Shown one piece after another: positions 3,137 through 46,879 of a DNA stretch of 64,000 nt. The DNA is from an uncultured Clostridia bacterium (GTDB taxonomy: Bacteria; Bacillota; Clostridia; Christensenellales; CAMQZB01). Numbering within the stretch: position 1 is the first letter of the stretch; each line of letters begins with the position of its first letter. The stretch spans positions 15,877-79,876 of the forward strand of contig CAMQZB010000001.1 of assembly GCA_947039455.1 (NCBI GenBank), given 5' to 3'. The position numbers were made by a program, and so were the translations under genes. The notes beneath the pieces are model-generated. The model made no database searches. It worked only from the letters and a program-made list of their open reading frames with translations, and was not told the DNA's origin.

Positions 3137-3859
3137 TTAAAAAATCACCTCCGAAGCCTTAAACACAGGACCTTCCTTGCAAACACGAGCATAGCCTTTT
3201 GTAGTTTGAATAGTACAACCCATGCAAGCACCAAAGCCACAACCCATGCGAGCCTCAAGAGAAAGTTCCCCCATATCGGAATGAGAAGCCAAGGCTTTTA
3301 GCATAACCATAGGACCGCAAGCAAAGTATTTATCGTAAGCAATGTTAGAACGCTTTAAGCACTCAACAACGTTACCAGCGAACCCAAAAGAGCCGTCATC
3401 AGTAGCAATAGTTACGTTAGCAATCTTCTTAAATTCCTCAACATAAAACATCTCGTCTTTGTTCCTAAACCCCAAAATCACATTAGCAGTAATCCCTTTT
3501 TCAGCAAAATCATTAGCTAAATTAAATAGTGGAGCGATACCGATACCACCGCCAATAAGCAGTGGGGAAGTAACATTAGAAATGTCAAAAGTATTCCCAA
3601 GTTCAGATAGAACATCAAACACAGTCCCAAAACCAACTTCCGTCATATCAGAAGTGCCAGCCCCAAGAACCTTATATAGTAAAGTCAAGGTATTGTCTTT
3701 ATAACGAGCAACGGAGAAAGGACGACGAAGGTATTTGTTAGGCAGTTGAAGTTCGATAAATTGTCCTGAACGAAGAATTGTATCACCAGTTAAAATCATT
3801 TCAAAAGTGTCGTGTCCAACAGAAGTGTTGGACAGCACAGTCATTTTAATTTGTTTCAT
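3137..3859 (-). CDS. pyrK: Dihydroorotate dehydrogenase B, electron-transfer (FAD/2Fe-2S) subunit
   Basis: C-terminal Cys cluster CGFGACMGC...C, 240 aa, directly upstream of pyrD. Confidence 0.85.
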   Translation of the reverse strand: MKQIKMTVLSNTSVGHDTFEMILTGDTILRSGQFIELQLPNKYLRRPFSVARYKDNTLTLLYKVLGAGTSDMTEVGFGTVFDVLSELGNTFDISNVTSPLLIGGGIGIAPLFNLANDFAEKGITANVILGFRNKDEMFYVEEFKKIANVTIATDDGSFGFAGNVVECLKRSNIAYDKYFACGPMVMLKALASHSDMGELSLEARMGCGFGACMGCTIQTTKGYARVCKEGPVFKASEVIF

Positions 3860-3868
3860 AAAACCTCT

Positions 3869-6800
3869 CTAGCTAATAGTTGAGATACCCATAGTAATTT
3901 CTTCAAGCACATTAAGAAGTACTGCAACGGTATCTAAAGAAGTGAACACAGGCACGTTATTTTCCACCGCAGTGCGACGAATAATAACACCGTCATGTTG
4001 AGTATGAGAGTTACTTTCGCTACTAGTGTTTACGATGTAAGTAACATAACCTTTGCGAAGTGAAGTAAGAATTTCGTCACTACCTTCGCTGATTTTCTTT
4101 TTCTCACGAGTCTTGATACCATGTTCTTTCAAATAAGTTGCAGTACCAGCAGTTGCCTCGATGTTGAAACCAAGTTGATAGAAACGTTTAATCAAAGGAA
4201 GAGCAGCCTCTTTAGTAGAGTCATTTAGCGTAGCCAAAACAGTACCATAGTTAGAAACCTTCAACCCAGAAGCCTTCAATGCTTTGTAAACAGCACGAGT
4301 CAAACTCTTATCGTAACCAATAGCCTCTCCAGTAGATTTCATTTCAGGAGAAAGTACAGAGTCAAGACCTGATAGTTTAGAGTAAGAGAAAGTAGGAGCT
4401 TTCACGTAGAACTTTTCTTTATTAGGAAGAAGTCCAACATAACCAAGGTCTTTCAAAGAAGTACCAAGCATAACCTTAGTTGCAATATTAGCAATAGGAG
4501 CGCCAGTGGTTTTAGCTAAGAAAGGCACAGAACGGCTAGACCTAGGATTAACTTCGATAATGTATACTTTGTTGTTTCTATCAATAACAAATTGAATGTT
4601 GAAAGGACCAACGATACCGATAGCCATAGCTATGCGAGTGGAGTAGTCAACAATAGTATTACGAGTTTCAGCACTTAGAGAGAAGTCAGGGTAAACGCTC
4701 ATAGAGTCACCACTATGAACACCAGCACGCTCAATATGTTCCATGATGCCAGGGATAAATACATCAGTACCGTCACAAATCGCATCAACCTCACATTCTT
4801 TACCTACCACATATTTATCAATAAGCACAGGGTGTTTTTCGTTAATAGCAATAGCCTCTTTCACAAAAGGAGCTAGCGTTTCGTCATCGTAACAAATGTG
4901 CATCATACGACCACCAAGAACGAATGAAGGACGAACAAGAACAGGATAACCAATTTGGTTAGCAGTAGCAACCCCTTCTTCAACGCTGTAAACTCCCTTA
5001 CCCTCAGGCATAGGAATATTTACGCTATTAAGCACCTCAGCGAACAAATCTCTGTCCTCAGCTAAAGCGATAGAATGACTTGAAGTACCCATAATAGGCA
5101 CGCCAGCATTATGCAAATCTTCCGCTAAGTTAATAGCAGTTTGGCCACCAAGAGCAACAATAACGCCCTTAGGTTTTTCGTATGTAATAATATTCATAAC
5201 ATCTTCATAAGTCAAAGGTTCGAAGTAAAGCTTGTCTGAAAGGGTATGGTCAGTAGAAACTGTTTCAGGGTTATTGTTAATAATGATAGCCTCGAAACCC
5301 GCTTCTTGAATAGCCCAAACAGCGTGAACAGTAGAGTAGTCAAACTCAACCCCTTGCCCAATCCTAATAGGCCCAGACCCAAGAACAATTACTTTCTCTC
5401 TGTCGGATACGATAGACTCATTACCGTTAGAGTAAGTAGAGTATAGGTAAGGAACATAAGACTTAAATTCGTTACCGCAAGTATCGATACTTCTGTATAC
5501 AGGGAACAAGTGGTTTTCTTTACGCAAATTGAACATAGCGTATTCATCAGTACCCCAAAGTTTCGCAATTTCCTTATCTGAGAAACCCATAACCTTAGCA
5601 TCATAAAGAATTTCCATGTTGTTTACGTTGTCCGCAACTACTTTTTCCATAGCAGTAATAGATTGTAGCTTATCAAGGAAGAAGCGATCTATTTTAGTTA
5701 AGTGGTATAAGTAGTCAAGAGGAATATCACGACGAATAGCCTCAGTAAGAGCAAAAATTCTTTCATCGTTGTTAAGGATAATATAATCAATCAAATCGTG
5801 GTTAGACAATTTTCCTAATTTTTCAATCTCCATGTGGCAAACACCGATTTCAAGAGAGCGAACAGCCTTCAAGAAACTTTCCTCAATAGTTCTTCCGATA
5901 CTCATAACTTCGCCAGTAGCTTTCATTTGAGTTGAAAGACGGCGGTCAGCACTTTGGAACTTGTCGAAAGGAAAACGAGGGAATTTAGCTACAACGTAGT
6001 CAAGAGTAGGAGAGAAACTTGCGTTTAAATCTCCAATAGGAATTTCCTCAAGTTTAAGCCCACAAGCAATCTTTGCTGAAACACGAGCGATAGGAAAACC
6101 AGAAGCTTTTGAAGCTAAAGCGGAAGACCTAGAAACACGAGGATTAACTTCGATTACGAAATATTCAAAAGAAGTAGGGTCAAGAGAGTATTGAACGTTG
6201 CAACCACCCTCAATTTTCAGTTCTTTAATGATTTTCAAAGAAGATTGAGCAAGCATGTTGTATTCTTTAGAAGTCAAAGTTTGACAAGGAGCAACAACGA
6301 TTGAGTCGCCAGTGTGAATACCAACAGCGTCAACGTTTTCCATAGAACAAATTACGATTGCAGTATCGTTTTTATCACGCATAACTTCAAATTCGATTTC
6401 CTTGAAACCTTTGATAGATTTCTCAACAAGAACTTGATGAACAGGAGACAATTTCAAAGCGTTAATAGAAAGTTCTCTGATTTCTTTTTCGTTATCAGCA
6501 AAACCACCGCCAGTTCCACCAAGAGTGAAAGCAGGACGAAGGATAATAGGATAACCAATTTTATCCGCCGCCTGAACGATTTCTTCGATAGTGGAAGCAG
6601 TGTAAGATTCTAAAATAGGTTCGCCAATGCGGTTACATAAATCTGAGAAAAGTTGTCTATCTTCCGCTTGACTGATAGCGTCAAACTTAGTGCCAAGAAG
6701 CTCCACTTGACATTCTTCAAGTATTCCTTTGTTGTGGAGTTGCATACCAAGATTAAGCCCAGTTTGACCACCGATAGAGCAAAGTAATCCGTCAGGACGT

Positions 6801-21391: not shown

Positions 21392-23647
21392 ATGAATAAA
21401 TTAGCGAAATTAATAGTAAGGGGCCGTTTTATAGTTCTAGCAATCTTCATAGTGGCAGTAGTACTGTCAGTGATTGCGATACCAAAAGTTGGGCAAAACA
21501 CTGATATAACATCATACCTACCAGAGGGAATGGATACAGTTGAAGGGTTGGAGCTGATGAAAGAAGAGTTCGGAATGGACTCAACAATAGTCTTAACAAT
21601 CAAAGACAAATCTATTGACGAAATGAACGAAATAATCGCAAATATCATGACAGTAGATAATATCGGTGACGTAATGTGGCTAGGATTGTTTGCGGATTTA
21701 GAAACTAAAGACATAGAAACGTTAGATCCAAAGCTACTTGAAATGTTCTATGTAAACGACACTTTTGTAATATTCATAACCCTAGCAATCAGCAGTACCG
21801 ACCCAGCAGCAATCACAGCACTAAACGAAATAGAGAGTTTCTGTAGCGGAAATTACTTCCTTGGGGGCTCAGCAGTACAGTCGAAAGACATGATAGAAAG
21901 TTCCATGGGGGAAAGCGTAACCTACGTAACAGTGGGAATAATCATAATTTTAATAATCTTATTGTTGACAACAAAGTCATACATAGAGCCATTTATTTTC
22001 TTAATCACAATCGGAATAGCAATAGTAATAAACATGGGAACGAACATAATTTTTGGTGAAATATCAATTATAACATTCGCCGCCGCCGCAATATTACAGC
22101 TAGCCCTAGCCATGGATTATTCAGTATTTATGATGCACGCGTTCCAAGAAGAAAAAGAGAAATGCGGAGATTCAATGTTAGCAATGCAAGCTGCGATACC
22201 AAAAACATTCAAGTCGGTATTTTCATCAGCATTAACAACAATAGGCGGATTTTTAGCATTATTCTTCATGAGATTTACAATCGGAATGGACTTAGGCGCA
22301 GTACTAGCAAAAGGCGTTTTCTTGTCACTAATAACAGTAATTTTCTTACAACCAGTACTAATCTTAATTTTCGATAAATTACTAGAAAAAACAAGCCATA
22401 AACTAAGATTTCCAAAGTTCAACAAATTAGCATACAAAACAATATCAGCAAGAAAAATAATATCAATAATCGGACTTGTGGTGTTAATACCAGCACTAAT
22501 CGGATCACAAATGGTGCAGTATAACTACCTAAAAATGGCAGAAATACCAGAACCAGTAAATGAAGCACACGCAACCCAACTAGAAATGGGCTCACAAATA
22601 ATAGTAATTGTACCAGATACCAAAATGTCAGTGCAGTATTCATTCTTGCAACAAGCAAATAATGTTGAAGGAATTAATCAAGTAATAGGAAAATACTCAT
22701 TCGTACCGCCTATATTCGCACCAGCAATTCCTGAAATGTTGCATGACGCATTCACAAGTGAGAACAATTATACTTACTATATGATCATGTTAGAAGGCAG
22801 TGATGAAGACCCAACAACCCAAGGAATATTAAGTGAAATAAGAGATATATGTGACTCAACATTCTCAAGTTTCTACATCACAGGAAACGCGCAAGCCATA
22901 AGTGATTTAGCATCAATTACCCCAACGGATTTAATGGTGGTAAACGTAGTATCAGCAGTGATAATTTTCTTAATATTGTTGTTAACAATGAAGAAATTCG
23001 GACTAAGTTTGCTAATTCTAATAATCGTAGAATTAGGAATATTCATAAACCTATCAATCACAGCGATTTCAGGCACATCAATAAACTTCATGTCCTATAT
23101 AATTATAAGTGCAATTCAACTTGGAGCAACGGTAGATTATGCAATTTACCTTGTGAATAAGTATTTAGAGAACCGCAAAACAATGGGAAATGCATTGTCA
23201 GTATATCGATCAATAGTTGATTCAACACAAACGATTTTAACCTGTATGTTAATTCTAGCATCAGCGTGTCTGTCAGTGTATTTCATAACATCAAACTTGA
23301 TTGTAGGAGAAATTACTTTGCTAATCGCAAGGGGTGCAGGGCTATCAGCAGTGCTAGTTTTAGTGCTATTGCCAGCCAGCTTATTAGTATTTGGAAATAT
23401 CAACGATAGCTATAAAAGCAAGCGAGTTGGAAAGGTGAAAAAGCAACCTAAAACTAAAGAAATTCAAGAAAATGAAGTTGATTTAATTGAAGAAAATAAT
23501 GAAACAAAGCAAATGGAAAAAGCAAGATTACAAGAAGAAAAACGTCAACGAAAGATTGATGAGCAACGAGCTTTTGAAGAGAAATTAATTGAAGACGATA
23601 AATTAAGAAACCAAAGTGAAACTAAGGAGAATACTAACAATGACTAA
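21392..23647 (+). CDS. MMPL/RND-superfamily membrane transporter (YdfJ-like) with a Lys/Glu-rich C-terminal tail
   Basis: Two blocks of about 6 TM segments separated by soluble loops. MMPL-like N-terminus (LAKLIVRGRFIVLAIFIVAVVLSV...TSYLPEG). Confidence 0.65.
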   Translation: MNKLAKLIVRGRFIVLAIFIVAVVLSVIAIPKVGQNTDITSYLPEGMDTVEGLELMKEEFGMDSTIVLTIKDKSIDEMNEIIANIMTVDNIGDVMWLGLFADLETKDIETLDPKLLEMFYVNDTFVIFITLAISSTDPAAITALNEIESFCSGNYFLGGSAVQSKDMIESSMGESVTYVTVGIIIILIILLLTTKSYIEPFIFLITIGIAIVINMGTNIIFGEISIITFAAAAILQLALAMDYSVFMMHAFQEEKEKCGDSMLAMQAAIPKTFKSVFSSALTTIGGFLALFFMRFTIGMDLGAVLAKGVFLSLITVIFLQPVLILIFDKLLEKTSHKLRFPKFNKLAYKTISARKIISIIGLVVLIPALIGSQMVQYNYLKMAEIPEPVNEAHATQLEMGSQIIVIVPDTKMSVQYSFLQQANNVEGINQVIGKYSFVPPIFAPAIPEMLHDAFTSENNYTYYMIMLEGSDEDPTTQGILSEIRDICDSTFSSFYITGNAQAISDLASITPTDLMVVNVVSAVIIFLILLLTMKKFGLSLLILIIVELGIFINLSITAISGTSINFMSYIIISAIQLGATVDYAIYLVNKYLENRKTMGNALSVYRSIVDSTQTILTCMLILASACLSVYFITSNLIVGEITLLIARGAGLSAVLVLVLLPASLLVFGNINDSYKSKRVGKVKKQPKTKEIQENEVDLIEENNETKQMEKARLQEEKRQRKIDEQRAFEEKLIEDDKLRNQSETKENTNND

Positions 23648-25391
23648 AAAAATCATATCAATTATATTAGCAATTAGCGTAGTGTTAGCATTCAGTGGCT
23701 GTGGACTTTTTCCTGAAAAAGTTCCACCAACGCCACGCCCAACAGTAGATCCTAATGCACCAATTTACATGAATGGAGTGGGAGTTTTCACTCTTTACAA
23801 CATTGAAACGGAAGAATTAGAAGAAGGATATCAAACTGTTTCAAGTGGAGGAAGCAAAGAGTATAACGTGAGAACCCAAGTAACTCTTGACATGAAAAAC
23901 AACAAAAATAACAAGATAGTATTTGATATAAAAGACAGGTTCAACCCATATAAAACCATAGCGGAAATATCATATGATGGAAGTCGTGAATTGATTACTG
24001 TTGACTTGTCGGGGCTTGGATTAACATCATTCAAAAAGCACGGGTTTGACCTAAATGCGTTTCTAAAAACAGTAGATTTCGCAAGTTTAACACCACCTGA
24101 ATTTGAAGATATGTTGCCAGACGGCGTGGAGATTGAAATTGACTTTGAGAAAGTAGACATGATGGATTACCTAATGAGTATTCTTTATTCAATCGATACA
24201 ACAGCGTTAGTAATCAATGAAGAAAGCATAGCAAAAATCGCTGAAGAAAACGGAACAGTATTTGAAGCGAAAGAGCCATTTGATATTACTGTAGGAGTGT
24301 ATTCTAAGGACAATATGTTCGAAAACATGCAAGTAACCTACGAAAAATCAGGTGCAAAAGTAGCGAATATAACTTTTACTGAACTGAAATTTGTTGAAGG
24401 CGAGCAAGTGGTGGATTTCAAAGATTACGGAATTAACATTGAAGAAAACGATCCATTTGAGATTATGAAAACAGCCTTTGAAGATATAGAAATCGGCGAA
24501 GGGTTCACAATAGAATACCAGTTAAACAACGGATACAGAGTGGACGATAAAGGTAATATTCTAACAATCCAAAACCGACTAAATCTAGTGAAACGATCCG
24601 TTACAGAAATGGAAGTTGACGTATATCAAAAAGTACTTGGAAACGGTGGATACAACCATATTTTGAGTGTAACAACTTTCGATTTTGAAGAGTGGAAAGT
24701 AACCTTGAAAGAGGGGTTAGCCTATGTTGTGGCGAATCCAACAGCGGAAGCGTCAATTAAAACTTTAATAGGATACATAGATCCGTTCATGGTTTTCAGT
24801 GACGATATTCGTGACGCATTAACAGCAAAAAGCGAAGCGGAGAATACAACTGTAATGGAAAGTATATCCTCCCTTTACGCTGGACTTGCAATCGCCCAAA
24901 CAACGGAGAATACTGAAATCAAAGGGTCTATTTTAGCTAAAGAATTTAATGAAATGCAGTCAATAATATTAAATGAGTTGAAAGACAACGGCTACGATTA
25001 CAATCCAACCACAGAAAATATCAATAACGCAATTACACGAAAAGTAATGACAAAAATCGCCGAAGATTTAAAAGACGTAGTAAACGGCTCAAGTACTGAT
25101 ACAATACTAGGCGGAATTATATCAGGCATACTAGGTTCTCAAGTAGGCAGTGGTTCAATCGACGCAATATACAAAGAACTGACAAAACAAGTTTCAGGTA
25201 TGCTAAAAAGTGTGCTTGACGGAATATTGCCATTGCCTGAAATCGCCGAAGGAAGCCTAACCGCAAACTTCGATGTGGACGGTCTAAAAAATATAAAACT
25301 AATCGGTTCAAACAACAAACCTGACCAAGAAAACCGCCATTTCAATTTCACCCTAACCCCCAACCTAACAAAAACCCAAAACATCGCATAA
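23640..25391 (+). CDS. Lipoprotein of unknown function, translationally coupled to the MMPL gene
   Basis: Lipobox LAFSGC after the MTKKIISIILAISVV signal. Its ATG overlaps the MMPL stop (ATGACTAA). AAGGAG RBS. Confidence 0.7.
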   Translation: MTKKIISIILAISVVLAFSGCGLFPEKVPPTPRPTVDPNAPIYMNGVGVFTLYNIETEELEEGYQTVSSGGSKEYNVRTQVTLDMKNNKNNKIVFDIKDRFNPYKTIAEISYDGSRELITVDLSGLGLTSFKKHGFDLNAFLKTVDFASLTPPEFEDMLPDGVEIEIDFEKVDMMDYLMSILYSIDTTALVINEESIAKIAEENGTVFEAKEPFDITVGVYSKDNMFENMQVTYEKSGAKVANITFTELKFVEGEQVVDFKDYGINIEENDPFEIMKTAFEDIEIGEGFTIEYQLNNGYRVDDKGNILTIQNRLNLVKRSVTEMEVDVYQKVLGNGGYNHILSVTTFDFEEWKVTLKEGLAYVVANPTAEASIKTLIGYIDPFMVFSDDIRDALTAKSEAENTTVMESISSLYAGLAIAQTTENTEIKGSILAKEFNEMQSIILNELKDNGYDYNPTTENINNAITRKVMTKIAEDLKDVVNGSSTDTILGGIISGILGSQVGSGSIDAIYKELTKQVSGMLKSVLDGILPLPEIAEGSLTANFDVDGLKNIKLIGSNNKPDQENRHFNFTLTPNLTKTQNIA

Positions 25392-25396
25392 TATTA

Positions 25397-25432
25397 AAAG
25401 CATTCTTGTAAAACAAGAATGCTTTTTTTTGT
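25397..25432 (+). terminator. Intrinsic terminator
   Basis: 12-bp stem aaagcattcttg/caagaatgcttt followed by a T-run. Confidence 0.85.
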
Positions 25433-25450
25433 TTTTTTGGGATTGGTTGT

Positions 25451-25507
25451 TAAGGAAAATGGAGCTCCGCCCCAAACCCCGCAAGGGGCTGACCCCCTTG
25501 ACCCTCT
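25451..25507 (-). repeat. GC-rich repeat element, copy 3 (G-rich strand is the minus strand)
   Basis: The reverse complement reads agagggtcaagggggtcagccccttgcggggtttggggcggagctcc, closely matching 46525-46580 and 46708-46763. Confidence 0.75.
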
Positions 25508-25734
25508 CTATGTATGGGAATTTTACTAGGAAAGTAGGGGCATATTTTTTCTTCGCAATTATGATAAAGCCAAACAAAAACTCAACAAAAACCAAAATCC
25601 AAACCCTAAAACCCCCTTAATAAATCACGGAACTTATAAAGCAAGTAAAGAAAAACTTTAGTCTAACTCGTTCACTTATTTTTATAGAGAGCAAGCAACA
25701 AAACTCGTTTATCTCGGACTGAACTCATGTCCAA

Positions 25735-25793
25735 GAGGGTTTCAAAAGGGACGGTAACGTGCCCTTTGCGGGGGCGTCGGGGGCAGAGCCCTG
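25735..25793 (+). repeat. GC-rich repeat element, diverged copy 4
   Basis: agagggtttcaaaagggacggtaacgtgccctttgcgggggcgtcgggggcagagccc shares the gggt..aaggg..ccctttgcgggg..gggg..gagc order with the other copies. It is inverted relative to copy 3. Confidence 0.5.
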
Positions 25794-25879
25794 ACAAAAA
25801 CGTGAAGACCTTGATAAACAAAACAACCTTAGTCAGGTAGCAAGAATAGATTTATCAAAGAACTTTACTCACGAACAAA

Positions 25880-27822: not shown

Positions 27823-29763
27823 ATGTTATTGAATTTAAAAGACGGAAACAAAATAGAAGTTGAAAATGGCTTAAACGCTTTTGACTGTATAAAGAATGTT
27901 GGTGACGGACTAGTGAAAACTGCCGTTGCGGTGAAGATTGATGGTGTATTAAAGGACTTGCGTGAAGTGATTTCTGCTGATTGCGACTTTGAAATCATAA
28001 CATTCCAACACCCTGATGGAAGAGAAATTTTTCACCACAGCACAGCTCATTTATTAGCGGAAGCTGTGAAGATTTTATATCCAACAGCTAAACTTGGAAT
28101 AGGACCTGCAATCGAAGCTGGGTTCTACTATGACATCGAGTTTGACCACCAAATTAACGAAGAAGAACTTGACAAAATTCAAGCAACTATGAAAAAATTA
28201 GTTAAAAAAGCCGAGCGTATTGAGCGTTTCGAACTCCCTAAAAAAGAAGCAATCGCACTTATGGAAGAACGCAACGAGCCATACAAAGTAGAGCTTATTA
28301 GCGAACTACCTGAAAACGAAGTTTTGACTTTCTACAAACAAGGCGATTATGTTGATTTCTGCCGTGGACCACATTTAATGAGTACATCAGCAATGAAAGC
28401 TGTGAAACTACTTCAAATTACTGGAGCATACTGGAGAGGTAACGATAAAAACAAAATGTTAACGCGTATTTACGGTACATCATACGACAATAAAGAAGCT
28501 CTTGAAGCCCATTTATTAGTACTTGAAGAAGCAAAATCTCGTGACCACAACAAACTTGGTCGTGAAATGAAAGTATTTACAACTGACGAAAACGTAGGGC
28601 AAGGTTTACCGTTAATTATGCCAAACGGTGCGAAAATCATGCAAACATTAATTAGATTTGTTGAAGACGAAGAAGAACGTCGTGGCTATGTTATGACAAG
28701 AACGCCTTTCATGGCAAAATCTGATTTATATAAAATTTCAGGACATTGGTCACATTATAAAGACGGAATGTTCGTTATGGGAGACGAGGAGAAAGAGGAA
28801 GAAGTGATGGCACTTCGTCCAATGACTTGCCCGTTCCAATACCTAATCTATAAAACCGATTTGCATTCATACAGAGACCTTCCAATCAGATACGGTGAGA
28901 CTTCAACTCTATTCAGAAACGAGAGTTCTGGTGAGATGCACGGGCTTATTCGTGTACGTCAATTCACAATTTCAGAAGGACATTTAGTTGTTCGCCCTGA
29001 TCAATTAGCTGAAGAATTCAAAGGCGTTTTAGACTTGATTTATTACCTACTTGACTGTATCGGACTACGTGATGATGTATCTTTCCGTTTCAGTAAATGG
29101 GATAAAAACAACCGTGATAAATACGAAGGCGAAGCTAGCGAGTGGGAAGATGTTCAAGCGAAAATGAAAGTAATTCTTGACGAAATCGGTCTTGATTACT
29201 ACGAAGCTGACGGCGAAGCTGCTTTCTATGGCCCTAAACTTGATATCCAAGCGAAAAATGTTTACGGAAAAGAAGACACGATTATTACTATACAACTTGA
29301 CTTCATGGCAGGCAAAAAATTCGGCATGGAATACGTTGATGCGGAAGGTAACAAAAAATCTCCTTACGTTATTCACAGAACTAGTATCGGTTGTTACGAA
29401 CGTACAATGGCTTTGCTAATCGAGAAATATTACGGTGCATTACCACTTTGGTTGATGCCTACTCAAGTTGCCGTTTTGTCACTAACTGATAGAACAGCGG
29501 ATGAAGCAAGTGCAACGGCAGCAGCGTTACAACGTGCAGGAATCAGAGTGAAACTTGACAACAGAAGCGAGAAATTAGGTAAGAAAATCAGAGAAGCTCA
29601 GCTTGAAAAAACTCCTTACATGGTTGTTATCGGCGACAAAGACGTTGAAAGTAATGTAGTTTCAGTAAGAAACAGAAAGCTAGGGGACATCGGTCAAATG
29701 TCTTTAGAAGAATTCATTGCTAAAATCCAAGATGAAATCAAAACTTTCAACAAAGAAGTTTAG
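27823..29763 (+). CDS. thrS: Threonine--tRNA ligase
   Basis: 646 aa with TGS, editing and class II core motifs (HRTSIGCYERTMALLIE). Preceded by the Thr T-box. Confidence 0.95.
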   Translation: MLLNLKDGNKIEVENGLNAFDCIKNVGDGLVKTAVAVKIDGVLKDLREVISADCDFEIITFQHPDGREIFHHSTAHLLAEAVKILYPTAKLGIGPAIEAGFYYDIEFDHQINEEELDKIQATMKKLVKKAERIERFELPKKEAIALMEERNEPYKVELISELPENEVLTFYKQGDYVDFCRGPHLMSTSAMKAVKLLQITGAYWRGNDKNKMLTRIYGTSYDNKEALEAHLLVLEEAKSRDHNKLGREMKVFTTDENVGQGLPLIMPNGAKIMQTLIRFVEDEEERRGYVMTRTPFMAKSDLYKISGHWSHYKDGMFVMGDEEKEEEVMALRPMTCPFQYLIYKTDLHSYRDLPIRYGETSTLFRNESSGEMHGLIRVRQFTISEGHLVVRPDQLAEEFKGVLDLIYYLLDCIGLRDDVSFRFSKWDKNNRDKYEGEASEWEDVQAKMKVILDEIGLDYYEADGEAAFYGPKLDIQAKNVYGKEDTIITIQLDFMAGKKFGMEYVDAEGNKKSPYVIHRTSIGCYERTMALLIEKYYGALPLWLMPTQVAVLSLTDRTADEASATAAALQRAGIRVKLDNRSEKLGKKIREAQLEKTPYMVVIGDKDVESNVVSVRNRKLGDIGQMSLEEFIAKIQDEIKTFNKEV

Positions 29764-29882
29764 AAACTAAAACGGAATTTAGAATACTAACAAAAAGAAG
29801 TTTAGAATACAAGAAATGGAATTTAGAGTACTCAAAAAAAGTGTTTAAGATACTAACAAAAAATAATTTAGATTATTCAAAT
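29755..29882 (+). repeat. Six phased degenerate repeats (consensus about AATTTAGAATACTAACAAAAA), period 19-23 bp
   Basis: TTTAG/TTTAA cores at 29759, 29778, 29801, 29822, 29844 and 29867. The first copy overlaps the thrS stop codon. Confidence 0.6.
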
Positions 29883-44170: not shown

Positions 44171-44300
44171 AACTACCAAAATCACCAAATTTATCAAAAA
44201 ACACCCCAAAAACCCTCCAAAACATACAAAAAATACCTAAAACATACAAAAAACACCCTAAAAATACACAAAAAAACAAACTATAACTTAAATATCATCT
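44171..44300 (+). repeat. 130-nt G-free C/A-rich tract directly after the proA stop codon
   Basis: No G on the plus strand between 44171 and 44300. Internal near-repeats aaaacatacaaaaaa. Confidence 0.9.
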
Positions 44301-46174: not shown

Positions 46175-46444
46175 ATGAGCATGATAAAACAAATGAAATT
46201 TGGAAACATTGGCAGTATGGAAAGTTTTCGAGTAGCAACAAAAACAGCTGCGATTTATGGGAAAATTGATAAAGCACATGAAAAATTAGTAGCAACTCTC
46301 AATGAAGAACAAAAAACTTTTTTAAAAACTCTAATTGATAATATCGAAGAGCAACAATGTGAAGAAAATGCCGATATATACCAATACGCTTTCTCAATAG
46401 GTCTAGGTCTAGGCTACGAATCAGGAATAATAATCCAAGAGTAA
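46175..46444 (+). CDS. Small hypothetical helical protein
   Basis: GAGGTG RBS. 89 aa. No recognisable catalytic motif. Confidence 0.45.
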   Translation: MSMIKQMKFGNIGSMESFRVATKTAAIYGKIDKAHEKLVATLNEEQKTFLKTLIDNIEEQQCEENADIYQYAFSIGLGLGYESGIIIQE

Positions 46445-46447
46445 AAC

Positions 46448-46583
46448 CAAACTCCAACAACTCCCAAACACCCCCTTAATAAACCACACCCAAACCATTC
46501 CCCAAAAAAACCACCCCCCAAAAAGCGGGTCAAGGGGCTCAGCTCCTTGTGGGGTTTGGGGTGAAACCCCATGTAACTTAACC
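46448..46583 (+). repeat. Direct repeat unit A (C/A-rich arm plus GC-rich core 46525-46580)
   Basis: Matches unit B at a +183 bp offset. Both ends are near-identical and the central ~30 nt diverge. Confidence 0.9.
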
Positions 46584-46631
46584 AAACCCAAACCCAAACC
46601 CAAACCCAAACCCAAACCCAAACCCAAACCC
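46584..46631 (+). repeat. (AAACCC)8 hexanucleotide microsatellite
   Basis: Eight perfect units. The complement is (GGGTTT)8. Confidence 0.95.
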
Positions 46632-46766
46632 AAACTCCAACAACTCCCAAACACCCCCTTAATAAACCACACCCCAACAAACCCTAAAAAAAAACACCCC
46701 CCAAAAAGCGGGTCAAGGGGCTCAGCTCCTTGTGGGGCTTGGGGTGAAACCCCATGTAACTTACCT
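46631..46766 (+). repeat. Direct repeat unit B (C/A-rich arm plus GC-rich core 46708-46763)
   Basis: See unit A. The core differs by 1 nt (ggggtttgggg versus ggggcttgggg). Confidence 0.9.
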
Positions 46767-46823
46767 ATAACCACCATAAAAAAAACACCACCAAAAAAAA
46801 CAAAATAAATTTACTGTATATAC

Positions 46824-46854
46824 TTGACATATTGTGTGTGATACAGTATACTGT
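46824..46854 (+). promoter_or_regulatory. Sigma-A promoter of the padR operon, overlapped by a 12-bp perfect palindrome
   Basis: TTGACA (46824), a 17-nt spacer, then TATACT (46847). Palindrome ACAGTATACTGT at 46843-46854. Confidence 0.65.
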
Positions 46855-46879
46855 GTGTAACACTATAAGGAGGTGGCGA

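Follow-up and report, generated by a model that had tools for sequence, protein, structure and literature searches.

Repetitive extragenic palindromes (REPs) are species-specific and are mobilised by RAYT Y1 transposases (REP-associated tyrosine transposases), and the persistence of REP-like repeats is a long-standing question. GC-rich repeats in AT-rich intergenic DNA also include the STAR repeats of Staphylococcus aureus and the GC clusters of yeast mitochondria. A hairpin signal of another kind, the ssoT-type single-strand origin (sso) of plasmids, is a folded single-stranded DNA (ssDNA) signal at which second-strand synthesis starts. Here we describe a GC-rich, two-hairpin repeat of about 55 nt that is present in four copies in a 64-kb stretch (the window; all coordinates refer to it) from the chromosome of an uncultured Clostridia bacterium (contig CAMQZB010000001.1, positions 15,877 to 79,876). 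The repeat belongs to a family that spans Bacillota and Thermodesulfobacteriota, and its module also matches the end of a plasmid origin, one of a type that has been tested experimentally.

Four copies of a two-hairpin repeat

The window has a GC content of about 35% and carries the thrS-infC-rpmI-rplT cluster and an FMN riboswitch. A 35-nt core occurs without mismatch at three sites, 25470–25504 on the minus strand and 46527–46561 and 46710–46744 on the plus strand, against an expectation of zero from 100 dinucleotide-preserving shuffles. A covariance model built from 33 copies taken from other genomes (R1), run over the window without filters, returned exactly four full-length matches with E < 1 and none further in the 64 kb. 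A preliminary description of this DNA had reported a GC-rich repeat in four copies and both orientations, and the exact core matches and the R1 scan confirm it. The four copies are as follows.

46524 to 46577, plus strand: copy A (R1 51.5 bits, E 7.5e-14), core exact; layout GGGT-P1(CAAGGGGC-TCA-GCTCCTTG)-TGGGGT-P2(TTGGGGT-GAA-ACCCCA).
46707 to 46760, plus strand: copy B (R1 49.7 bits, E 2.7e-13), a tandem duplicate of copy A.
25454 to 25507, minus strand: copy C (R1 49.5 bits, E 3.2e-13), core exact, left arm of a doublet; near consensus, with CAAGGGG-GTCAG-CCCCTTG followed by TGGGGC-GGA-GCTCCA.
25736 to 25799, plus strand: copy D (R1 14.4 bits, E 0.014), diverged right arm of the doublet; layout GGGT-TT-P1(CAAAAGGGAC..GTGCCCTTTG)-CGGGGG-P2(GTCGGGG-GCAGAG-CCCTGAC).

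Folded as ssDNA, all four copies yield the same two hairpins, P1 with the stem CAAGGGG(C)..(G)CYCCTTG and P2 with TGGGGT-GAA-ACCCCA or an equivalent. For copy A, the two-hairpin fold has a free energy of −12.5 kcal/mol (z −3.3). The CAAGGGG hairpin and the second, UGGGG hairpin of the preliminary description are thus both predicted in every copy, and the four G-runs that it noted on the G-rich strand are present. Copy D keeps the architecture and both hairpins, with CAAGGGG/CCCCTTG replaced by CAAAGGG/CCCTTTG. The copies had been placed immediately downstream of plus-strand genes, which is roughly right, but the distance from the stop codon of the preceding gene to the copy ranges from 63 to about 345 nt, and copy C lies beyond the terminator of its gene.

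A covarying fold on the G-rich strand

The family consensus reads GGGGT-[P1 CAAGGGG-variable top-CCCCTTG]-Y-GGGG-T-[P2 NNNGGGG-3-6 nt loop-CCCCNNN]-GGTYTT, a unit of about 55 nt in which a G-tract precedes each of the two hairpins. RNAalifold on a raw MAFFT alignment gave an alternative hairpin, CCCC-TTGY-GGGG, which we rejected as misleading: the raw alignment had put copies with 6-nt loops out of register with those with 7-nt loops, and it was replaced by a curated alignment with its structure. There, 96% of the cells are paired, compared with 41–62% in all slid controls, and double-sided changes number 56 versus 19 in shuffles. Structure-preserving variation, absence of which would have spoken against the preliminary description, extends across other genomes: in 124 distinct copies, compensatory changes are seen at 16 of 16 pairs and 94.9% of cells are paired (slid controls 32–58%), figures that come from an alignment fitted to the model and leaning to its structure. 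The same description had pointed to a G-C versus G-U variant at one pair in the window. That position is real, but a sister-strain copy reads CAAGGAGC..GCCCCTTG, in which the G·T of the window is replaced by an A·C mismatch; the lone variant is therefore poor evidence of covariation, and the real evidence comes from the other genomes.

Mismatches are also unevenly distributed between the strands. There are 66 G·T against 14 A·C mismatches overall, 15 against 5 in matches outside the search patterns and 19 against 10 in P2, which the patterns leave unconstrained. This excess indicates that the G-rich strand is the folding strand; in the window copies, that strand folds as ssDNA about 2 kcal/mol better than its complement. 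Loops and junction lengths vary, and no unpaired nucleotides are conserved besides the G-tracts.

A head-to-head doublet at 25 kb

Copies C (minus) and D (plus) form a head-to-head doublet with a 228-nt spacer, so the inverted pair noted earlier at 25.4–25.8 kb is real. The remaining features at this locus, with the further copies of its upstream box, are listed here.

25396 to 25436, plus strand: intrinsic terminator of the gene at 23616–25391, a 14-bp stem followed by a T-run.
25508 to 25735, no strand assigned: doublet spacer, AT-rich and C/A-rich on the plus strand, containing the upstream box at 25604–25628.
25604 to 25628, 46463 to 46487 and 46646 to 46670, plus strand: three copies of a 25-nt upstream box (CCCTAAAACCCCCTTAATAAATCAC), 88–100% identical.

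Copy C starts 18 nt past the terminator, and in other genomes the module is also commonly found directly behind terminator-like hairpins. We compared the locus with a related species, L138 (L-numbers label the comparison loci and contigs), which is about 70% DNA-identical in the flanking genes and keeps both doublet arms in the same intergenic region. Its plus arm has the stem CTAGGGG/CCCCTAG, and its minus arm, which is duplicated, has the stem TAAGGGGC/GCTCCTTA and a second hairpin, GGAGAC/GTCTTC. The stems are thus altered yet still pair, while the intergenic DNA around the arms is no longer alignable between the two species. That GC-rich hairpins have outlived such divergence in an AT-rich genome argues for constraint on the fold. 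The doublet spacer of the window does not align with that of L138 and has no Rfam match. The 25-nt box (CCCNAAACCCCCTTAATAAAYCAC) sits 61–131 nt 5′ of every plus-strand copy in the window and has no counterpart in L138; it looks like an addition to the 5′ side of the repeat that is specific to this lineage. Its complement resembles a strong Shine-Dalgarno sequence (AAGGGGG).

At L138 1152–1380, the decayed minus arm lies within a unit of about 117 nt that is tandemly duplicated, a second case of local duplication. A search for insertion polymorphism through homologues of the flanking helix-turn-helix gene returned only distant ones, and members of the thrS cluster were used instead.

A recent tandem duplication at 46 kb

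The two copies at 46 kb had been counted as independent. They lie in one tandem arrangement composed of the following parts.

46432 to 46590, plus strand: first 159-nt unit, a C/A-rich leader followed by the box and copy A.
46615 to 46773, plus strand: second 159-nt unit, which holds copy B.
46582 to 46640, plus strand: (CCAAAC)n microsatellite, 9.7 copies, Tandem Repeats Finder score 109, joining the two units.

A repeat search of the window found the two units to be 89% identical with a 183-nt period. When the locus is aligned with L134, L135 and L136, only one unit is present in the sister strains L135 and L136, which lack the microsatellite, and L134, an identical assembly, has the same two-unit arrangement as the window. 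The 46-kb pair is therefore a single, recent local tandem duplication, and the microsatellite arose with or after it. The (CCAAAC)n array is telomere-like.

Distribution and arrangement in other genomes

An exact-pattern scan of one genome per species found 13 loci, in metagenome-assembled genomes of Clostridia, Ruminococcus and Desulfovibrionaceae, with GC contents of 43%–66%. With a relaxed pattern, the matches listed from metagenomes include more than 120 loci, among them human-gut assemblies and Joint Genome Institute (JGI) records; one JGI contig group is here called termite-gut on the basis of its project identifiers, the listed matches giving no environment. R1 recovered many copies that the patterns missed. 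Many metagenome matches lie within a few bases of contig ends, as expected of a repeat that breaks assemblies. A plasmid of the cultured Desulfobaculum bizertense carries one copy, so the spread across phyla is no binning artefact. No match was found in a scan of viral contigs. The sole 'phage' match, MT838741 (L144; 'UNVERIFIED: Bacteriophage sp.', 4.9 kb, GC-rich gut Clostridia, with the human-gut variant of the repeat), is a mislabelled chromosomal fragment with xylulokinase, ruvC and ruvA and not a phage.

Copies reach four to six per 7–13 kb in L072, L098, L099 and L027, and up to one per ~2 kb. They are arranged as solo units, tandem single-hairpin arrays and inverted doublets. Solo half-units and single hairpins in tandem are found as often as doublets. 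Doublets of the (−,+) order occur in at least 13 other loci, with spacers of about 9–250 nt. All inverted pairs less than about 150 nt apart have this order, with the GGGGT sides facing and spacers of 9–147 nt; the window, L001 and L085 hold wider doublets, with spacers of 208–252 nt. The palindrome of several doublets runs past the module (for example L001 and L002). The inverted-pair architecture is thus recurrent and not a coincidence of the window. The preliminary description had called this arrangement similar to a miniature inverted-repeat transposable element (MITE) and had noted that no transposase was present. Among 134 representative open reading frames (ORFs) within 1.5 kb of copies in other genomes, none encodes a transposase, which extends that statement to the surroundings of those copies, the window's own ORFs not having been screened. 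The 134 are housekeeping genes with no recurrent family.

Two further arrangements were seen. In L099, one of the contigs called termite-gut (612–674, 2279–2333, 2425–2479 and 3640–3692), consecutive genes are bracketed by plus and minus copies: the plus copy ends 16–25 nt before a Shine-Dalgarno sequence and start codon, the minus copy begins at the stop codon, and the repeat occupies entire intergenic regions. A second GC-rich repeat (..GGCGCAGGCAGCGAAGCGTCCCTGCCAGTCACTTTGCGCTCCCGCAGGAGCGCCCC..) regularly lies about 50 nt downstream of the module (L077 1660–1760 and 3740–3830, and many human-gut loci). It is also found alone, so those genomes hold composite mosaics of several hairpin repeats.

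Searches of known families

At the gathering threshold, the only Rfam match in the window is the FMN riboswitch (RF00050, 12945–13070, plus strand, 111.7 bits). A local E-value scan gave chance-level matches only; the best to overlap a copy, Clostridiales-2, scored 12 bits against a threshold of 58.6, and sub-threshold matches to Clostridiales-2, RefA9 and tmRNA were rejected as chance. Fifteen GC-rich loci from the family likewise had no Rfam matches. A limited literature search for descriptions of the repeat as a REP, a MITE or ssoT found nothing specific, and sequence strings returned primer coincidences only. Palindromic intergenic repeats are a known kind of element; the new part, which we could not find described and which is apparently absent from Rfam and from the literature reached by that limited search, is the family, its breadth and its link to plasmid origins.

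The module resembles the terminus of ssoT plasmid origins

A BLAST search of plasmids with the consensus identified plasmids from Bacillus thuringiensis and B. wiedmannii, small rolling-circle replicons of the MobV type. They carry the module (63 bits) about 170 nt upstream of mobV, and both there and on a RepL/Mob contig its sequence, GGGGTCAAGGGG..CCCCTTGTGGGGTGTGGGGCAAAGCCCC, is that of the repeat. That contig, from a metagenome, is 4.4 kb long with 25% GC and encodes RepL and Mob_Pre; if it is circular, the module precedes mob on the strand of that gene.

The ssoT origins have been located at 6349–6549 of pTA1060 and 5109–5307 of pTA1040 (PMC4595007). The B. thuringiensis and B. wiedmannii plasmid regions align with both along about 200 nt, and the module is the last about 55 nt; the published 3′ boundaries of ssoT coincide with the end of P2. 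This terminus is laid out as TC-hairpin-T-GGG(G)T-hairpin(GGGCAAAGCCC). The B. subtilis plasmids keep this layout with other stems, the terminal hairpins being CCAACGG/CCGTTGG, then TGGGT, then TTGGGC-AAA-GCCCAA. R1 matches pTA1060 at 6505–6555 with E 0.004 and pTA1040 with E 0.11, the shared part being only the last two stem-loops. Folded as ssDNA, both origins form a row of stem-loops of which the final two are P1 and P2. The preliminary description could match the repeat to no known RNA family or REP/BOX-type element. No Rfam family indeed matches, but the 3′-terminal stem-loops of ssoT are a recognisable relative that it missed.

In pTA1060, a distance of 4 kb separates ssoT from mob, and ssoT lies on the coding strand of rep and mob, so the module is part of the sso and not of the origin of transfer, oriT. 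The oriT of MobV plasmids was rejected as an identity for the module, as in the B. thuringiensis plasmids another, oriT-like inverted repeat, whose loop is GTGGG/CT, separates the module from mob. In pTA1040 ssoT, the hairpin equivalent to P1 (L143, about 670–690) carries TAGCGT, the CS-6 motif of ssoA, where synthesis of the primer RNA ends; if that assignment holds, P1 would be a primer-termination hairpin.

The upstream parts of ssoT are missing from the window and from all chromosomal loci. The long 5′ hairpin (GTCAACGG..GTTGAC) and the GCCAACCGGCGAG box have no match in the window at up to three mismatches, and GCCAACNGGCGAG is found at plasmid loci only, with none at chromosomal loci. 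Solo copies elsewhere are split 39 versus 39 by local GC skew, taken as a rough indicator of the direction of replication, and thus show no orientation bias. The window copies are not ssoT origins, since the upstream parts are missing, both strands are used and the copies elsewhere have no GC-skew bias.

Other features of the window

Between thrS and infC, at 29752–29862, lie five tandem copies of a 22-nt unit (AAAGAAGTTTAGAATACTAACAA). The intergenic DNA (44178–44275 and other stretches) is C/A-rich on the plus strand, with degenerate repeats of the AAAAACACCCC type, in line with the strongly positive AT skew of the window. A near-consensus promoter, TTGACA-17-TATACT, at 46824–46870 overlaps a long GTGTGTGATACAGTATACTGTGTGTAAC palindrome just upstream of a PadR-family gene; the palindrome is probably an autoregulatory PadR operator.

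Discussion

We consider it probable, though far from certain, that the repeat is a non-coding hairpin cassette of a REP/MITE-like type, active while its G-rich strand is single-stranded, which has common ancestry with the terminal module of ssoT and has multiplied in the intergenic DNA of many anaerobes. When one strand becomes unpaired, the module would fold and act, and selection would bear on the G-rich strand; ssDNA rather than RNA would then be the relevant form. On chromosomes the module stands alone, in either orientation and often as a doublet or tandem array, which suggests a portable hairpin cassette multiplied in intergenic DNA. Copies would have spread as a non-autonomous element through a trans-acting factor. 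The window genome, with one conserved doublet and one recent tandem duplication, would hold copies that are old and immobile.

Several observations weigh against this proposal. Neither a mobilising enzyme among the 134 neighbouring ORFs nor a RAYT-like ORF in the longer doublet spacers inspected was found; no parent insertion sequence with matching ends was found, and no empty or filled site was recovered on which transposition could rest. TA flanks both sides of about half of 14 doublets and may just extend the palindrome. Conservation of the exact sequence in several phyla is not what REPs usually show. Copy positions are conserved among relatives in this lineage, an observation equally compatible with a role for the host and with a dead selfish element. 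What the repeat has in common with the ssoT terminus of B. subtilis is mostly architecture (E 0.004 and 0.11), and strong matches are limited to the B. thuringiensis and B. wiedmannii plasmids and the RepL contig, where the repeat could conceivably have been inserted secondarily. To these we add the leaning of the 124-copy alignment to the model structure.

The best-surviving alternative, which we regard as possible but doubtful, acts at the RNA level: the hairpins would serve as terminator-like or 3′-protecting structures, as with E. coli REP/BIME (bacterial interspersed mosaic elements) and Neisseria Correia elements, or as a 5′-untranslated region (UTR) stem-loop, and would be kept for insulating transcription units. 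Placement leans to gene 3′ ends (99 copies downstream versus 70 upstream), often 45–100 nt past the stop codon or abutting the stop of a convergent gene, but orientation to the flanking genes is near random (56 sense and 43 antisense downstream, 36 and 34 upstream). GGTTTT follows P2 in many other genomes, with mixed gene orientation, and the minus-strand copy C is flagged as terminator-like, the only such copy in the window; the 46-kb copies lack a T-run after P2. In L099 and L028, the plus copy ends 16–25 nt before an AGGAGG Shine-Dalgarno sequence and start, and the minus copy begins at the preceding stop; the fold at the 25-kb doublet, for its part, is kept in the same intergenic region across species, and both observations fit this explanation. 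A terminator, however, has no need of a 28-nt sequence shared across phyla, doublets with 9–13-nt spacers are too tight to enclose a transcription unit, and on plasmids the module is DNA of a functional origin.

A broader possibility, which we hold to be improbable, is that the module is a portable, host-independent cassette for starting the second strand, read on ssDNA by a universal enzyme. It would have colonised the chromosomes of several phyla as a new class of MITE whose replication or repair passes through an ssDNA intermediate, or as a means of rendering chromosomal DNA that arrives single-stranded convertible to duplex, and plasmid ssoT origins would be assemblies of the cassette rather than its source.

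Rather unlikely, too, is that the chromosomal copies act as mini-origins that prime the complementary strand through RNA polymerase or primase whenever the G-rich strand is exposed, be it at stalled forks or during conjugation or another form of ssDNA transfer. The module does end experimentally defined ssoT origins, the related sso1 of ICEBs1 is active in an orientation-specific manner (PMC4595007), G·T outnumbers A·C on the G-rich strand, and a universal host enzyme as the reader would explain conservation across phyla. Yet the window and the chromosomal loci lack the long 5′ hairpin and the GCCAACCGGCGAG box, solo copies divide evenly relative to GC skew, and both orientations occur within doublets.

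Two further explanations are very unlikely. An undescribed small structured RNA gene or cis-regulatory, riboswitch-like RNA would account for covariation in two helices and for the intergenic loci, but the neighbouring genes are unrelated, copies take either orientation and can be packed in tandem or inverted arrays to a density of one per ~2 kb, loops and junctions vary with only the G-tracts conserved unpaired, no promoter is associated in the window, and the module is located on plasmid origins. A G-quadruplex regulatory motif would draw on four G3–5 tracts that are the most conserved positions of the module, but two of the four are always faced by C-tracts placed to pair, which argues for hairpins as the selected structure, the pairs beside the G-tracts covary as hairpins do, and the central quadruplex loop would span about 15–17 nt.

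The family bears on how REP-like repeats persist, as such repeats are normally species-specific and this one keeps a near-identical core of about 28 nt and a covarying fold in DNA that ranges from plasmids of 25% GC to chromosomes of 70% GC. It opens the question of a common origin for plasmid lagging-strand origins and chromosomal palindromic repeats, and the existing pHP13-type assay of ssDNA accumulation offers a handle on the role of a single-stranded chromosomal repeat. In practice, the repeat breaks metagenome assemblies, and modelling it in RNA and repeat libraries would prevent its being mistaken for novel small RNAs.

Comparison with known systems

Neither the STAR repeats nor the GC clusters are known to be related to the family in sequence; the former are direct repeats that lack the two-hairpin module, and the latter belong to mitochondria. 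The Neisseria Correia MITEs, related to IS630 and with a TA duplication, are likewise palindromic, non-coding and beside genes, as are the doublets described here, some of which are TA-flanked. These doublets form palindromes of 120–350 nt, with long terminal inverted repeats around a short non-coding unit, and are placed where they could supply terminators or UTR structures. They differ from MITEs in that solo half-units and tandems are common and the spacer varies from about 9 to 250 nt.

The REP, BIME and REPIN elements of E. coli and Pseudomonas are closer. Like them, the present repeat is an imperfect palindrome, short and GC-rich, in which a conserved 5′ tag adjoins the stem, GTAG in REPs and here GGGT or GGGGT ahead of P1 and of P2. 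Both are intergenic with a 3′-end bias and have doublets, tandem mosaics and covarying stems; inverted doublets with short spacers are found here as in REPINs. A large number of dispersed copies would be a further likeness, with four at two loci in the 64 kb of the window and one per ~2 kb in some other contigs. The present unit differs in having two hairpins, another tag and a sequence shared across phyla, and no cognate RAYT was found among the 134 neighbouring ORFs or in the longer doublet spacers.

The ssoT-type origins of pBAA1, pTA1015, pTA1040 and pTA1060, together with ICEBs1 sso1, have the module architecture in their 3′-terminal about 55 nt. They act as folded ssDNA in a strand-specific manner, and their G-rich strand encodes rep and mob. 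The window copies, in contrast, are chromosomal, lack the upstream about 150 nt, and occur in both orientations and as doublets and tandems.

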